64,000 bases of DNA from positions 32,001 to 96,000 of the forward strand of contig CAVTCR010000019.1 of NCBI GenBank assembly GCA_963733195.1. Reading direction: 5' to 3'. Position 1 is the first letter of the stretch. Each line of letters begins with the position of its first letter. The translations under genes and the position numbers were made by a program. The notes beneath the pieces are model-generated. The model searched no databases, was not told where the DNA came from, and saw only the letters and a program-made list of their open reading frames with translations. This DNA is from an uncultured delta proteobacterium. Lineage in GTDB: Bacteria; Desulfobacterota; Binatia; Bin18. Below, piece after piece: positions 4,784 through 50,306 of the stretch.

Positions 4784-4876
4784 GGAAATCTCCCTTTCCT
4801 TAGGGGTCATGATCTGTATAGAAGGTGAGGGTGCTGACCTTAATCTCACCTCAGTCCGTCGTCAACATTTTCCTGC

Positions 4877-4904
4877 TTGACCGGGTCTCCAGGGAACGTA
4901 TAGT
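4877..4904 (+). promoter_or_regulatory. Putative sigma70 promoter of the antitoxin gene
   Basis: TTGACC-16nt-TATAGT. Confidence 0.55.
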
Positions 4905-4940
4905 TTTATCGCATAACAAATGAGCGCTCGGAGATGTTCG

Positions 4941-5423
4941 ATGGCGGTCAAGACTATTCCCCTCAGTGAGGTGCGGCAGAAGCTGAAAGACATCCTGGCC
5001 ACCTTGGAGGCAACAGGCGAGCTGTATCTCATTACGCAACACCACCGTCCGAAGGCGGTCCTGGTCCGCTATGAGGATTACACTACGCTGGTCGAGCAGA
5101 CAGCCGAGGGACATCCTCACATCGTTCGCCGCCCTACTATTAGTGGAGGCGAGCCTATCATCCGTGGCGCCCGCATTTCCGTTCGTCACATCATCGAACG
5201 CATTCAGGCCGGTCAATCAGTAGAGGATATTCTGGCTGCCCTCCCCCATCTAACCGTCGCCCAGGTCTATGACGCCCTCTCGTACTACCATGACCACCAA
5301 GCTGAGATGAACCGACTTATAGAGGAAAGCCGGCCTGAGCGGGTGATCGCAGCGCAGGGCCTGAAGGTTGAAAAGATTGCCGAAGGGGTTGCCGTAGCAC
5401 ACGATCAGCGGGGGCGATGGTAG
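4941..5423 (+). CDS. Phd/YefM antitoxin domain fused to DUF433
   Basis: N-term KTIPLSEVRQKL...LITQHHRPKAVLV..EDY (Phd); C-term HIVRRPTISGGEPIIRGARISV...PHLTVAQVYDALSYY (DUF433). Confidence 0.85.
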   Translation: MAVKTIPLSEVRQKLKDILATLEATGELYLITQHHRPKAVLVRYEDYTTLVEQTAEGHPHIVRRPTISGGEPIIRGARISVRHIIERIQAGQSVEDILAALPHLTVAQVYDALSYYHDHQAEMNRLIEESRPERVIAAQGLKVEKIAEGVAVAHDQRGRW

Positions 5424-5935: not shown

Positions 5936-6954
5936 ATGGCTAAATTCGATTACTCTGCGTATTACCGTCGTCTCCAGGACCTCAAGAAACTACAGATCCC
6001 AACAGAGTCGGTTTGCTGGACCGAGCAGTATCGTCCGCCGGAGCGAACGTATGACATTGTTCTGTATCTCGGCTGCAATATTTTACGCACGCCGGATGTG
6101 GCGGCTGATGTTGTCACTGTGTTCCGGGCGCTGGGGCTCGATTTCATCGCGGTGGCTGGGGTGCAGTTCTGTTGCGGGATCACCTGGGATCGGTTTGGCA
6201 ATGTCGCCAAGGGACAGACTGTGGCGGATTTGACGATTGAGCGACTCGCCTCATACAAGGCGCGGGTCGTCGTCCACTGGTGTCCGTCGTGTGACGTGCA
6301 TTTCTCTGATGTCGTCACTGGACGGGATGCGAAAACAATTCCCTTTGAGGTAACTGATGCACCAGCATTCTTAGCCGCACTCAGTCAGCGCGGGCAGATA
6401 CCGTGGCGTCATGCCGTCGCCGGTCGCGTGGCACTTCATAGCCACAGCGGACGAGAAGGCCACGAGGCCGGCCAGCGGCGCGCACACGCCGATCAAGAGC
6501 ATGTCAGTTATCTTCTGTCGCAGATTCCCGGCCTGCACTTCCTTGGCGCGGTTACGGCTCCAGGAGAGTTTGATTACGATTGTGGTCCCAGTTCAATACG
6601 CGTAGAGCGCGCGCGTTGGCTCGCGCGCGTGCGGAACAATTGGGCACCGTGCGGCGACTTGGCGCGGAGACGTTGGTGACAGTCTCGCATGCGTGCCAAC
6701 GTGAATGGTGCGATGTGAGTGACAACACGCTGACCGTACGTAACTACATCTCTCTTGTAGCTGAAGCAATTGGCTGCACCCGGAGTTACGAGAGTGATAC
6801 ATTAGGGCGTTTGAAGCACCTGGGGGACCTTGACGCTCTTGTTGAGAGTACCCAGGCCAATTGGACGAGTCATGGATTAAGCAAAGAACAGGCAGAAGAG
6901 ATTGCCCACAAGTATTCCTGGGCCACTCCAGCGCCGCGCTCGTCGGCACCGTAA
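5936..6954 (+). CDS. (Fe-S)-binding CCG-domain protein (HdrB/GlpC-like), frameshift near 6640
   Basis: LYLGC, FCCG, WCPSC, then degenerate second repeat DCGP...SHACQ across ORFs 5936-6679 and 6580-6954; RBS GGAGG. Confidence 0.75.
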
Positions 6955-7173
6955 GGGAAGCCCGCTGCTGCATAAAAGGAGGTTGTCAGCAGGCAGCGTG
7001 AACAATGAATCATACGGACTCTCTGTGAGGCCTATTCATTTCCGCATGCTTCGACTCCGCTACCGCCGCAGCGTACCTTGAGCCCTGAGACCTGTATGAT
7101 GGATGTTGAGCTGAACAGCGAGTGCTCTTGTACATGGTGGCAAAGCCCACCAGAGCGGCCAGGAGGCACGACG

Positions 7174-8405
7174 ATGAACAGCGCAGCATTCATTCCGATG
7201 GAATACGATATTTTTGCAGGACTCGATGTGGACAAGCGACGGTATAGCGGTGACGTTTACCGATCACCAAGGAGGAATGCGCTCGGTGGGAATGCCCTAT
7301 AAGGTGGACCATTTGGTAAACTATGTCCGCAAACATTTTCCCGACAAGAAAGTGGCCTTTGCCTATGGAGCTGGACCGACGGGGTATGGATTGCATGATG
7401 GGCTGGAGGCGCAAGCCTATCGGTGTGTGATCGCCTCGCCCGCGATGATTCCACAAGCACCGGGACAACGTGTGAAGACTAATCGCCTCGACAGCCGCAA
7501 ACTGGCAGAGAGTTTGCGGGGAGGACAACTCAAACCGATTCACGTGCCCTCCGGCCCGTATCGAGAACTGCGGCATCTGACCCAGTTGCGCGATGCCTTT
7601 GTCAGTGAACTGGTAGGGATGAAGCAACGGATCAAATCGTTGCTGTTGGTGGAAGGGCTGGAGTTTCCGCCCGCCCCCGCGGGCAGTCAGTGGTCGGGGC
7701 GTGTCAAACAGCAATTGCGCCAGTTGCCCTGTACACTGACGGTGCGGTTCAAACTCGATCAATTGCTGGACAGTGTGGAGTTTACCGAAAAACAGGTGGT
7801 CAAAACCACCCGCGAGATTCGCCGGTTTTGCCAGACCGAGCCCGAGTTGGCGCAGTGTCTCCACTATCTGATGAGCATCAGTGGCATTGGCTGGATTGTG
7901 GGGACGCAATTGTTGGCGCGTATCGGGGATTGGCGCGAGTTGAAAAATATCCGTCAGTTGGCAGGCTTTCTGGGCTTGGTCCCGACCGAGCATTCCACGG
8001 GCGAGAAAACCGTGCGGGGCTCGATTACCCACAGCGGCGATCCGCGGCTCCGCAGTAAACTCATCCAAGCCGGCGTGGTCGGCGATCCGTCAAGACGGGG
8101 AGTTGCGCGAATTCTATCGCTCCGTCTGTCACACCCATCCCCGCCATCTCGCCGCGCGAGTGGCCATTGTCGCCGTGGCCCGCAAACTCAGCGTGCGCAT
8201 TGCTGTAGTCCTGATGCAACAACGCCCTTATGAGGTCCGCAAAAAAGTTGTGTTTGACTCCGTTGACCCAAGAGGAGACCGCGCCCCAGGGCACGACTCG
8301 ACAACAAGCAGAAACAGGAGAGAATCTCTCCTAACGGTTCGCTCCTTGAGACAGAGAGCCCGGGGCCGCAGGCCCATGAGAGGGGCGCATCCCATGTCAG
8401 TGTGA
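7174..8405 (+). CDS. IS110-family DEDD transposase/bridge recombinase (frameshifts near 7240 and 8075-8100; true stop may be near 8260)
   Basis: RBS AGGAGG; FAGLDVDK, AYGAGPTGY, RVKTNRLDS, LMSISGIG, LAGFLGLVP.EHSTG...GSITHSG, AIVAVARKL. Confidence 0.92.
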
Positions 8406-8470
8406 CGGCCGTCGTGCCGTGCCACGTATAGCAGCCAGTCTCTCTTTGGTCAGACGGTACAGAGTCATAA
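8278..8470 (+). ncRNA. Predicted bridge/seek RNA of the IS1111-type element
   Basis: Two stem/internal-loop/stem units whose loops match the target (TCGACAA, CCTTGAG) and the circle-junction donor (ATAGCAG, TACAG); folded by eye. Confidence 0.7.
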
Positions 8471-8546
8471 AAAAAGAGACCTCGTATGTTTGTACCTTGA
8501 CATCCACATAGCAGCTTGTCGAAGGGGCGAAGGGGAAGTCGAAGGC

Positions 8547-9555
8547 TCATCCAATCGCGTGGTCTCCAAGAGTAAGCACGATCTTGCCAATTTGGGCATC
8601 GCTGAGCATGTAGGCATGCGCCTCGGCAATCTGCTTGAACGGGAACGTACGGTCGAGTACGGGTTTAAGTGCACCCGTAGAAAAAGCACCCAGCAGGTCA
8701 GCGGCGCAGCGCTCACTACAAACTAATGCTTCTTCTGGCGTGCGAGTACGAAACGTAACGCCAATAATACTCGCACGTTTACGCGCAACCTCATCGAGGT
8801 TACAGTCGCCAACCTGGCCGGCGTTGCGTCCGACGCTCACTAACCGCCCCTTAATCCCCAGCACGCGAATATTATCGGCGAGCATCGGCCCACCGACTTG
8901 GTCGATAATCACATCAATGCCATGCTGGCCTGTCGCGGTGAGAACAGCCTCAACCCAACCTGCTTGACTGGTGTCGATGATCTCAGTGCGCACCAAGCGC
9001 ACGCAGAGCACCCCCTTTGGCCGCTGACCTTGTCGTGGCCATCACCGGATGTGCGCCGAAGTAGCGTGCGATCTGAATCGCCGCTGTGCCGACTCCTGAT
9101 GAACCAGCAGTGACCAGCACGGACTCGCCTGGTTTGATCGCAGCATTGCTGACTATGGCATCATGTGCAGTAACGAAGACATTGGGAATAGCGGCAGCTT
9201 CGGCCCATGACATGCCATCGGGAATCCGCATTAAGGCGCGCTGAGATACTACCGTGTACTCGGCGTAACCAGCACCGCGGGCCATGATACGATCCCCGGT
9301 TGTCCATCCGCTTACTCCCTGACCGAGCGCGACGATTTCACCAGCGAATTCAATACCCGTGCGCATCGGTTTGGCTGCCGGATTGTCTGACCGTAGAAGC
9401 GGGCGCGCAAGCAGTTCGCCGCGATTAGTCCCTGCAGCACGTACAGCCACAAGGACCTCACCAGGCCCTGGAGTTGGCACGGGGATTTGACGGAATTCGT
9501 ACACTCCACCCTCAGGACCGGGAACAACAAACAATGCCTGCATGGTTTGGGTCAT
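8547..9555 (-). CDS. MDR-family NAD(P)H quinone oxidoreductase (frameshift near 9000)
   Basis: PTPGPGEVLVAVRAAGTN, GIEFAG, VLVTAGSSGVGTAAIQ, GIDVIIDQVGG, AEAHAYM...GKIVL. Confidence 0.88.
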
Positions 9556-9607
9556 GATGAAATCTCCTCTTTTTTCAAGAAAGGTGCGTCGGCAACGCAA
9601 CTCGGTC

Positions 9608-47378: not shown

Positions 47379-47406
47379 CTTAGTGACTTCATGAGGAGGA
47401 GGGGGT

Positions 47407-50306
47407 ATGGCGGAAAAGCTGCGTAAGAAGGTGGCTATGGAACAGAATCACGCCTCACGCACCGAAACGGAAGCAGTCATCCAGCAAACGTCGCGGTCTG
47501 AGCTTCAAACGGTACTTCACCCGTCCAGGTATTCATCCGTACGCTGAAGTCGAATGGGAAAAACGAAGCGCCGTAATCTCTGGAGAAAAAGGCGATACCG
47601 TTTTCGAGCAGCATGATGTCGAGATTCCGAAACCGTGGTCACAACTCGCGACCAACGTCGTCGTGTCCAAGTATTTTCGCGGACAGATCGGAACGCCGCA
47701 ACGTGAGCATAGTGTCAAACAGTTGATCGGTCGCGTGGTTGACACCATCACCGGATGGGGCCGCAAGGATGGCTATTTCGCCAGCGAAGAAGATGCACTG
47801 GTCTTTGCCGAAGAACTGACGCACCTCCTCGTCGAGCAGCGACTCGCATTCAACAGCCCAGTCTGGTTCAATGTTGGCGTCGAACCTCACCCGCAGTGTA
47901 GTGCGTGTTTCATCCTTTCGGTTGACGACAAGATGGATTCTATTCTTGACTGGTACCGCAAAGAAGGCGTCATCTTTAAAGGCGGTTCAGGTTCAGGGGT
48001 GAACCTTTCGCGTATCCGCTCCTCGAAAGAGCGCTTAGCCGGCGGTGGCACGGCCTCTGGTCCAGTTTCGTTTATGCGCGCAGCCGACGCTTCAGCTGGA
48101 GTCATCAAGTCAGGTGGCAAAACCCGCCGTGCTGCAAAGATGGTCGTGTTGAATGCAGATCATCCCGATGTTCTTGAATTCGTCCAATGCAAAGCAACAG
48201 AAGAAAAGAAGGCATGGGCGTTGATCGAAGCTGGCTACGATAGCTCGATCGACGGTGAAGCCTATGGTTCCGTCTTCTTCCAGAATGCCAACAACTCGGT
48301 CCGGGTCACAGATGACTTCATGCGGGCGGTCGTCGATAATCGTCCGTGGTCGACTCGCTACGTCACTACAGGAGATATTTGCGCGACCCTCTCCGCTCGC
48401 GAGCTTTTACAAAAGATTGCCGAAGCCACCTGGTTCTGTGGTGACCCAGGCATGCAGTTTGATACGACGATCAATGCGTGGCATACCTGCTCGAATACAG
48501 GTCGCATCAACGCATCGAACCCATGCAGCGAATACATGCACCTCGATGACAGTGCGTGTAATCTTGCCTCGCTCAATCTGATGAAGTTTCTCAAAGACGA
48601 CGGCGGGTTTGATTCGACCTCGTTTAAGCATGCGGTCGATATTAGTATCACCGCGCAAGATATCGTGGTGGATAATTCGAGTTATCCCACCAGCGAAATT
48701 ACGGAAACCGCCAAGGCGTTTCGTGAACTTGGCCTTGGATATGCGAATTTGGGCGCATTGCTCATGTCACTCGGTCTTCCCTACGACTCAGAAGCTGGAC
48801 GCCAGTACGCCGGAGCTATCACTGCACTAATGACAGGTGAGGCATATTTGCAGTCTGCCCGCATCGCCGAACAGATGGCACCATTCTCTGGTTATGCAGT
48901 GAATCGCGAACCAATGCTCGGTGTCATCGAGAAGCATCGCACGTATGCGCATAAACTTGATCCCTCGCTTGTCCCGCTCGATTTACTCTCTGACGCACGA
49001 AAATCCTGGGACGAAGCCTTAGCCGTCGGCCGTAAGAGCGGCTATCGCAATTCGCAAGCAACTGTTCTCGCACCAACCGGTACTATCGCCTTCATGATGG
49101 ACTGTGACACAACTGGTGTCGAGCCTGATATCGCGCTTGGTGAAATACAAACGGTTAGTTGGCGGCGGATTGTTGAAAATTGTCAACAACACCGTTCCGC
49201 GTGCACTGAAACGGCTCGGCTATGATAGCAAAGCCATTCAGGCCATCGTCGAATACATCGACGAACACGAAACGATCGAAGGTGCACCGCGGCTCCGCAA
49301 CGAGCATCTGCCGGTATTCGATTGCGCCTTCAAACCGTCGCGTGGCAGCCGGTCGATTCACTACCTCGGACATCTTCGCATGATGGGAGCGGTCCAGCCG
49401 TTCCTTTCTGGGGCGATTTCCAAAACGATTAACATGCCGACCGACGCCACGGTTGAGGATATCACTGAAGCGTACCTCGAAGCGTGGCGGCTAGGACTCA
49501 AAGCCGTCGCGATCTATCGTGACGGATGTAAGCGCGTACAGCCATTGGCTACCGGCGAGAAGAAAGCCGAACAGGCGATTCCTGCAGTGGTTGCGGAACC
49601 AACTCCTATCCGCCGACGACTCCCGAACGATCGCGATGCGATTTGTCATAAATTCGACATTGCTGGTCACGAAGGCTATATCCACGTCGGGTTTTATGAA
49701 GACGGCACTCCAGGTGAGATTTTCATTAAGATGGCGAAAGAAGGTAGTACGATTTCTGGATTGATGGATAGCATCGCTACGCTGACGTCGCTTGCGCTCC
49801 AATACGGGGTGCCGCTCGAAGCCTTGGTCAGCAAATTCGGCCATGTACGTTTTGAGCCCTCGGGCTTCACCAAGAACCCAGAGATTCCCTACGCAAAGTC
49901 ACTCACAGATTATATCTTCCGCTTCTTGGGCAACCGCTTCTTACCAGCCGAACAAAGCCAGGACGCCAGCCTGAGTGAAGGGAACGGCCAGCGAGAGTCC
50001 TCACGAGGTGAGATTGAGCGAGCGCATCATCCAGCAGCCCTCACGGATGGAGCCAGGGCGACGCTCAGCGGCACCGCCTCACTGCAGGCAAACAGTGCAG
50101 CAGTGGCGTATATCAACGGTGCTCACCCCTCCCACGAGGATTCTCTCCGGTCAGCGCCTACTGATGTACACTCTTCAACATCAGTGAGTAGAACATGGCA
50201 GTCACAAGCTGATGCGCCGAGTTGTGCCGACTGTGGATCAATCATGATTCGTAACGGGTCGTGTTACAAATGTCTCAACTGTGGCGCGACCAGTGGTTGC
50301 TCGTGA
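47407..50306 (+). CDS. nrdJ: Vitamin B12-dependent (class II) ribonucleotide reductase, frameshifts near 47520-47600 and 49140
   Basis: FNSPVWFN, QCSACFI, GSGSG, SNPCSEY, CNLAS, GLGYANLG, APTGT, SGAISKT, YRDG, TSCPD-like domain, C-terminal Zn ribbon. Confidence 0.95.

Follow-up and report, generated by a model that had tools for sequence, protein, structure and literature searches.

An apparently decayed IS1111-group insertion sequence with a predicted bridge RNA, lodged in a REP-like repeat of an uncultured delta proteobacterium

In the genome of an uncultured delta proteobacterium (6.9 Mb in 87 contigs, 93% complete), we analysed a stretch of 64 kb, hereafter the window, in which the DNA was read directly between positions 6800 and 8800. 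Window positions 7090-8514 are best explained, with a probability that we put at about 0.9, as an element of the IS110 family, damaged in its assembled form, belonging to the IS1111 group of these insertion sequences (IS), which carries a bridge (or seek) RNA and homes to a repeat resembling repetitive extragenic palindromic (REP) sequences. All features lie on the forward strand unless stated otherwise. An initial annotation, made from the letters alone, had proposed an IS1111-type bridge recombinase at this place; every string it named is present where it had been located, including a stem of 8281-8292 with 8358-8369, and the roles given to these strings fared unequally.

The identification as an IS1111-type element stands, on the profiles of the protein as well as on the anatomy of the element. 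Within the frame at 7214-8233, the Pfam profiles PF01548 (DEDD_Tnp_IS110, E = 4.7e-10) and PF02371 (Transposase_20, E = 5.6e-18) are matched, and the NCBIfam model NF033542, “IS110 family RNA-guided transposase”, for which the cutoff is 140 bits, scores 156.4 bits with the window fragment and 204 bits with an intact relative. The window translation contains GLVPTEHSTG, an instance of the motif G..P....(S/T)G, whose strict pattern is found in 24 of 32 relatives, and the closest solved structures are those of the ISCro4 and IS621 transposases. The start codon lies 84 nt in from the left end and the stop codon 180 nt short of the right end, so that the longer, RNA-bearing end is downstream of the gene. 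Subterminal inverted repeats, for which 7-17 bp is the range expected of the IS1111 group, are formed by TGGATGTTGAG at 7100-7110 and its partner at 8496-8506; they match perfectly over 7/7 positions (7100-7106 against 8500-8506) and over 9/11 on extension, and the corresponding ends of relatives, TGGATGTCGAG and TGGATGTCAAG, match at 10/11 positions as judged by eye.

The insertion sequence comprises 1425 bp including one AG, the right-hand one (8513-8514), and its ends are common to relatives in other genomes and metagenomes. It begins with ACCTGTATGATGG at 7090 and finishes with CCACATAGCAG up to 8514. AG flanks both element ends, at 7088-7089 and 8513-8514 only, and there are neither terminal inverted repeats nor a target duplication beyond this shared 2-nt core, which is the pattern of the IS110 family. 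On the left, the element abuts the target sequence CCCTG together with the core AG (7083-7089), and other left junctions agree with this; on the right, it is followed by CTTGTCGAAGG (8515-8525) within a flank that reads CTTGTCGAAGGG from 8515 on. The right target contains GTCGAAGG, the 3' arm of a REP-like hairpin, the 5' arm of which, CTTCGAC at 7049-7055, can pair with GTCGAAG at either 8518-8524 or 8538-8544; CTTCGACT (7049-7056) and AGTCGAAG (8537-8544) are inverted copies of each other. Junctions collected from other loci are of the same kind: CCTGAG terminates all eight left junctions, and in 11 of the 12 on the right AG is followed, after 3-6 nt, by (G/T)CGAAGG; only a truncated copy in the host genome departs from this.

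The site itself is abundant in the host. The 6.9-Mb genome contains 11 copies of the exact 17-mer CCTGAGCTTGTCGAAGG, against about 0.001 expected by chance for a 17-mer, and the relaxed pattern TGAGC.TG.CGAAGG occurs 44 times with the repeat uninterrupted. In these copies CCTTCGAC is usually found about 30 nt upstream, giving the arrangement CCTTCGAC ... GTCGAAGG, and the repeat counts together with this arrangement of the arms identify the target as a REP-like hairpin repeat. Where the site is empty, only one AG is present (CCTGAGCTTG), as seen both in the host genome and in one contig from a soil sequencing run that bears the target without the insertion. The element thus occupies the hairpin loop of a REP-like repeat, directly 5' of the 3' arm, and insertion at an AG core inside such a hairpin, as initially annotated, is confirmed by the shared junctions and by the exact and relaxed repeat copies. 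The same repeat is also split at 29 places in the host genome (for instance on contigs C8, C9, C36, C59 and C86) by a near-identical palindromic insert of 27 nt, CCTGCGCCAGTGCCGCAGGCACAGGTG, which lies between ..TCCTG and AGC.TG.CGAAGG, 2 nt to the left of the IS insertion point, and comes without duplication of the AG.

Only one second copy of the element is present in the host genome; it is truncated at its 5' end, is 84-89% identical and has a divergent right flank. Among 40 related genomes searched, matches were found in four, all of them within the 24 genomes of the same family. In one of these, G011, five left and five right element junctions lie at contig ends, as is typical when an element present in several copies interrupts the assembly, and the element there is apparently active. 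Further relatives were sought in genome and metagenome collections with two DNA patterns that represent conserved portions of the 3' end. The first pattern returned 80 stretches from the genome collection, six of which passed the motif filter (five true family members and one chance match), and the patterns returned at least 120 stretches from the metagenome collection, of which 80 were turned into loci. These RNA-derived patterns yielded more than a protein-seeded scan of genome contigs, which gave only three loci. The relatives number about 85 and come chiefly from soil metagenomes; from the pattern-derived and earlier loci, 89 copies of the donor region were parsed.

Across these relatives, the segments that would guide the RNA to its target change together with the sequences in which the elements sit. 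The right-target guide, at 8302-8309, reads CAACAAGC (CGACAAGC in the family form) and is complementary to the top strand over the core G and CTTGTCG. The 44 elements compared give 37 distinct guide-flank pairs, which match at 6.97/8 on average, compared with 5.04 +/- 0.19 when the flanks were shuffled 2000 times, and none of the 2000 shuffles scored as high; 15 pairs match at 8/8, 12 at 7/8, six at 6, three at 5 and one at 3. The changes are paired, ..ACAAGC going with CTTGTCG, ..ACAGGC with CCTGTCG and ..ACACGC with CGTGTCG, and more distinct guides find their own sites with 8/8 matches: CGTTGCGC with AG|CGCAACG, CGGCTGGC with AG|CCAGCCG and CGAGAGCC with AG|GCTCTCG. Five of the 27 good matches are off by one base in register, at targets that have one extra base before GTCG.

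The initial annotation had placed the right-target guide at TCGACAA (8298-8304), which in the window copy is a 7/7 reverse complement of TTGTCGA. This register is wrong: the position tracks no flank, with a match of 3.38/7 against 3.27 for shuffled flanks, and is a near-invariant piece of scaffold that reads TCGACGA in 27 of the 37 distinct pairs whatever the target. A perfect TCGACAA match is found in one pair of the 37, that of the window copy alone, and arises there because of a derived A at 8303.

The left-target guide, CTCC[T]TGAG at 8342-8350, has the sense of the left target plus the core, and its best fit has one U bulged out. Allowing one bulged base, the fifth or sixth from the 3' end, the match in 28 distinct guide-flank pairs averages 6.68/8 compared with 5.88 +/- 0.16 in shuffles, none of the 2000 reaching the observed mean, while contiguous pairing without the bulge scores 5.25; as one example, the guide GCGG[T]TCGAG is found alongside the flank GGCGGTCGAG|. 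The position proposed earlier for this guide, CCTTGAG at 8344-8350, was therefore right, and the single wobble pair proposed with it was not, since a one-base bulge fits better. The top-strand complement (8302-8309) precedes the bottom-strand complement (8342-8350), as in IS1111-type elements, where the gene is followed by the RNA and the top-strand match is the first of the two (PMC11187229). The proposal would have been undermined by relatives with other boundaries, with unrelated targets or with guides that fail to covary; we find instead that the boundaries recur and that both target guides covary with their flanks.

One could also imagine that the protein recognises the REP hairpin, as in REP-targeting transposases of other families, and that the RNA complementarity is a by-product. 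The location of the target inside a hairpin repeat and the presence of the GTCGAAGG arm at most relatives would both suit such a mechanism. It has difficulty, however, in accounting for relatives with different guides, which sit in correspondingly different sequences, some of them not REP-like at all (AG|CGCAACGAA and AG|CCAGCCGAAT), and RNA guidance has been demonstrated by experiment for members of both the IS1111 and the IS110 groups (PMC11187229, PMC11208160), so that we give recognition by protein alone only a very slim chance. Guidance of the element by its RNA fits these observations, and, since the guides match a repeat that is abundant in the host genome, the element would home to repeats.

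For the donor side, the left guide was correctly recognised from the outset as ATAGCAG at 8428-8434, which equals the last 5 nt of the element plus AG. In 71 relatives, guide and element end are identical in 64, and in one both sides have changed, the guide to ATAACAG and the end to TAACAG; five have ATGGCAG, where a G.T wobble is possible, and one has a mismatch. The candidate for the right-donor guide is the adjacent CCAGTCT at 8435-8441, which faces the left-end sequence AGACCTG with two mismatches or one bulge. All 21 relatives with the form CAAGTCT have AGACTTG as their left end, a 7/7 match; locus L014 has CGAGTC together with the left end AGACTCG, and the window-type CCAGTCT is accompanied by AGACCTG in seven relatives and by AGACTTG in four. 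As the candidate overlaps the 3' strand of the stem that would close the RNA (P0, below), we hold this assignment, made from sequence comparison, at about even odds. The linker at 8387-8399 was also considered as a right-donor guide and was rejected, being variable against a constant left end. No left ends were found with simple patterns for the distant subfamilies L117, L131, L147, L174, L178 and L183.

As right-donor guide, the initial annotation had named TACAG at 8458-8462, which is complementary to CTGTA at the left end of the window copy. This is a chance match, and TACAG is not a guide: the position is unconserved in relatives with the same left end, which read GGTACGAGAG, GAGATAAAG, GGAAAGAAT or similar, the multi-copy element of G011 included. 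A guide map built on TCGACAA and TACAG has perfect complementarity in the window copy in its favour, but with one position nearly constant whatever the target, its window form stemming from the derived A8303, and the other varying where its partner stays the same, we consider it highly improbable. The registers at 8302-8309, 8342-8350 and 8428-8434 are those that we retain.

Folding the single sequence of 8240-8512 gave z = -2.5 and an uninformative structure, and alignment folding was used in its place. With 44 close relatives, RNAalifold predicts 43 consensus pairs. A closing stem, P0, pairs 8267-8279 with 8438-8449 (predicted with 44 and also with 18 relatives), one of its pairs changing from A-U to C-G in three sequences. 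Stem P1 has its 5' strands at 8283-8291, with GGG (8289-8291) opposite CCC (8359-8361) and GCCCC (8283-8287) opposite GGGGC at either 8362-8366 or 8382-8386. The inner hairpin P2 (GAAAC AGGAGAG ... CTCTCCT .. GGTTC, 8311-8340) closes a target-binding internal loop, in which it brings the two target guides opposite each other, and hairpin P4 (GTG..ACGGC loop GCCGT..CAC, 8400-8425), with an invariant stem and a variable loop, lies just 5' of the donor guides, which are predicted to be single-stranded between P4 and P0. The fold called for by the initial annotation thus yields a closing stem, a target internal loop and single-stranded donor guides. The stem proposed around the target loop is recovered on the close relatives as P1 (8283-8291 with 8359-8366), but this holds in part only: when five diverged relatives are added, the partner of 8283-8287 becomes 8382-8386, and an extra hairpin at 8362-8375 creates a three-way junction. 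The guides are unpaired in both predicted variants.

The RNA would begin about 70 nt upstream of the stop codon, so that the final ~40 codons of the recombinase gene (window 8215-8334) overlap it, including the right-target guide and the 5' strands of two stems, and the frame terminates within the 3' strand of P2. Because the coding tail overlaps the right-target guide, changes in the guide also alter the tail of the protein (..PLTQEET.PQGT.R..AE.GE..S). As to expression, a metatranscriptome run, X16, contains three contigs of a near-identical element, corresponding to window 7342-7492, 7766-7925 and 8201-8460; one of them spans the bridge-RNA region with its last base at 8460, and the contigs do not show RNA ends. 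We take these contigs as a weak hint that a near-identical element is transcribed.

The two ends of the element also carry the halves of a promoter. The -35 half, TTGACA at 8497-8502, overlaps the right subterminal repeat (8496-8506) and is present in 67 of 70 right ends, and the -10 half, TATGAT at 7095-7100, is present in all 38 left ends; when the ends are joined at one AG, the spacing between the two is 17 nt in 33 of 33 cases. The circle-junction promoter TTGACA-17-TATGAT that had been noticed in the window is therefore conserved as a sequence, and the joined ends would be active as a promoter to judge from other members of the family (PMC12288879, PMC11208160).

By analogy with work on IS621, ISEc11 and ISPpu9, circle formation, transcription from the junction, RNA processing and strand exchange would take the following form. 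Intact relatives would encode a DEDD-type recombinase of about 385 amino acids (aa) and a bridge RNA of about 185 nt, which overlaps the end of the gene and continues for about 115 nt past it. The element would leave as a circle, its ends joined at the shared AG, and the promoter so formed would drive both recombinase and RNA. The two target guides would sit in the internal loop of the RNA, and 8428-8434, probably together with 8435-8441, would be single-stranded in a multi-branch loop and pair with both sides of the circle junction, whereupon the recombinase would exchange strands at AG. The guides appear to be tuned to the repeat ..CCTGAG|CTTGTCGAAGG.. that abounds in the host genome.

The copy in the window would itself be unable to carry out this cycle. 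Its transposase frame (7174-8334, with the stop TAA at 8332-8334) is broken into four segments by shifts near 7243, 8070 and 8248, revealed by tblastn with an intact relative that is 78-79% identical, and where this relative reads AFAYEAGPTG the window reads AFAYGAGPTG. The codon responsible, 7367-7369, is GGA (Gly) and relatives encode Glu, so that the window copy does not have an intact D-E-D-D tetrad; among 32 open reading frames (ORFs) of at least 335 aa in relatives, 29 have Glu, one has Lys and two are off the search pattern. The earlier caveat about a frameshift and about Gly in AYGAG was thus well placed, and the number of frame changes is three. Judged from its assembled sequence, with three 1-nt insertions and Gly at the catalytic Glu, the copy cannot make recombinase. 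Two derived bases stand in its RNA: the A at 8303 is a mismatch in the right-target guide, and an A at 8314 disrupts P2 at a pair for which 43 of 44 sequences have C-G.

Contigs that are 95-100% identical to the element were found in three soil DNA runs and one metatranscriptome run. Wherever they cover these positions, they have one base fewer at 7243, 8070 and 8248, an A at 7368, which restores Glu, and, in three of the runs, a G at 8303; intact near-twins of the element therefore exist elsewhere. None of the near-identical soil-run contigs covers the unique flanks of the window (6900-7082 and 8547-8700), and we therefore regard them as other copies and not as this locus.

The damage could also lie in the assembly, the element being intact in the organism and the three frameshifts being consensus indel errors. 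Each of the three is a single extra base within a 2-nt run, exactly these bases are missing from the near-identical contigs of the three soil DNA runs and the RNA run, and two unrelated genes of the window, out of seven candidate ORF pairs tested, are likewise split by frameshifts, which makes it probable that the assembly has indel errors. One of them, a quinone-oxidoreductase-like gene on the reverse strand (8550-9600), adjoins the element and has its ADH_zinc_N match divided between two consecutive ORFs (profile positions 1-36 and 36-119); the other, a class II ribonucleotide reductase gene on the forward strand (47387-50303), matches Ribonuc_red_lgC over 1-413 and then, in the next ORF, over 408-523. 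Three indels in 1.2 kb are, however, far denser than the two found in the remainder of the 64 kb, which was sampled only, and they are accompanied by substitutions atypical of indel errors (G7368, which turns Glu into Gly, A8303 in the guide and A8314 in P2). The contigs that lack the extra bases come from other copies, as their failure to reach the unique flanks indicates, and the sole other copy in the host genome is truncated and only 84-89% identical. We consider an intact element hidden by assembly error possible but doubtful, and think it fairly likely that the decay is real; unless assembly error explains part of the damage, the window copy is a fossil.

The recombinase lineage to which the copy belongs is large. 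Of 8000 candidates scored in a protein search, 6389 had E <= 1e-5, and the best 120 of these 6389 are all at least 80% identical, most of them 385-386 aa long. Where names are given, they are “IS110 family transposase” or “transposase”, and some of the proteins come from metagenome-assembled genomes (MAGs) of Candidatus Binatia. In a plasmid collection, recombinase identity did not exceed about 35%, and a phylum-wide DNA search with the RNA region in 400 other genomes gave one weak 25-nt match. From the metagenome and protein matches and the near-empty phylum sample, the lineage is, as far as such searches tell, abundant in soils and narrow in host range. No named IS was found for it in the collections searched, among which ISfinder was not included. 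The suggestion that this is a new programmable-recombinase ortholog is weakly supported by the lack of a named IS among the records; against it, public MAGs already label such proteins “IS110 family transposase”, the family is known to have AG cores and REP targets (PMC12288879), and the window copy is no working recombinase as assembled.

Several relatives are reduced. L047 (about 4860-5290) and L114 have no recombinase gene and consist, over about 420 bp, of both element ends with the whole bridge RNA between them; in L013 and L014 (about 230 bp) the two ends enclose no more than the donor half of the RNA. In L180 the gene is present and the target arm of the RNA has been lost, and L142 is a 5'-truncated copy.

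At the position of the IS621 catalytic residue D102, 30 of 32 family ORFs encode Asn (KTNRLDS, window 7480-7500); the same Asn is found in a Rhizobium IS110-family protein, WP_063473343, and Asp in a cyanobacterial and a Bradyrhizobium member. Comparison of sequences suggests that this Asn, the recombinase of 385 aa with about 40 codons overlapping the RNA, the bulged left-target guide and the recombinase-less derivatives are particular to the lineage, and adjacent donor guides are probably a further trait. One might speculate that these belong together, and that the IS1111-type bridge recombinases of a large, uncultured lineage from soil differ from the IS621 model in several linked ways: side-by-side donor guides in a multi-branch loop that overlap the closing stem, a left-target guide that is always bulged, an RNA whose 5' half is the coding tail, and a tetrad that reads D-E-N-D, with mini-elements shed without recombinase, but with the entire bridge RNA or its donor half, and mobilised in trans, whether or not they choose their own targets. 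We regard this joint reading as tentative and on balance rather unlikely; if true, at least 20 natural guide variants would constitute a ready panel for how guide register and bulges set specificity.

Some of our observations weigh against the identification of a guided IS1111-type element, or at least against parts of it. The tested sequences share kinship, so that the shuffle tests overstate independence, a bias that is mitigated by their diversity, the guide 8-mers having 20 distinct forms and the target 7-mers 22. An Rfam search over 6800-8800 at E <= 1 matched no family. None of the 43 consensus pairs shows a compensatory change in the close family, because the family is too alike, and although 8 of 40 pairs become compensatory when the five diverged relatives are added, this support comes from few sequences, representing about two lineages. 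The right-donor candidate shares bases with P0 and, in the subtype of the window, reaches only 5/7, or 6 with a bulge. With Asn at the D102 position, the chemistry of the family may differ in detail, and the X16 contigs may reflect DNA carry-over.

For the genome, the outcome is the annotation of one dead or mis-assembled mobile element and of a REP-like repeat family as its landing pad. The mechanism, that is, RNA targeting, AG cores, junction promoters and REP homing, is already published for the family. The field gains something modest but real: a natural series of close IS1111-type elements in which guides and sites can be read side by side, which fixes the guide registers for the lineage and highlights the bulged left guide, the adjacent donor guides, the overlap of RNA and coding sequence, and the active-site Asn.

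Among known systems, the element resembles the IS1111 group with seekRNA (ISEc11, ISKpn4, ISPa11 and ISPst6; Siddiquee et al. 2024, PMC11187229) in its DEDD recombinase with the GL-P----(S/T)G motif, its long downstream RNA region, its subterminal inverted repeats and its guide order, and ISPa11 shares with it a specific target that likewise consists of REP sequences. It differs from the elements described there in the recombinase, of about 385 aa as against the 330-350 aa reported, with some 40 codons overlapping the RNA, and in a left-target guide that appears to need a one-base bulge, a comparison made by description. With IS621 (Durrant et al. 2024, PMC11208160; structures 8WT6 etc.), it has in common a bispecific RNA in which target and donor each have a left and a right guide, pairings that take in the 2-nt core, a promoter re-formed across the circle junction and REP-type targets; IS621 uses its left guides for the bottom strand and its right guides for the top strand, the core lying within each pairing. 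The RNA of IS621 is, however, encoded at the left end, whereas here it is at the right end with the order of the target guides reversed, and the donor guides, which face each other in an internal loop in IS621, are apparently contiguous in a multi-branch loop here, where the same source places the donor-binding bases of many IS1111 orthologues. The core is CT in IS621 and AG here, D102 is replaced by Asn, and the IS621 protein aligns significantly by sequence with the lineage of the window over the C-terminal domain only (E = 1.3e-7). ISPpu9 and ISPpu10 of Pseudomonas putida (PMC12288879) are similar in their AG insertion inside REP, often in REP pairs, in minicircles joined at AG and in derivative modules without a transposase gene, whereas ISPpu9, a member of the IS110 group, carries its RNA upstream, has the additional small RNAs Asr9 and Ssr9, and shows no sequence kinship with the element of the window beyond the family.

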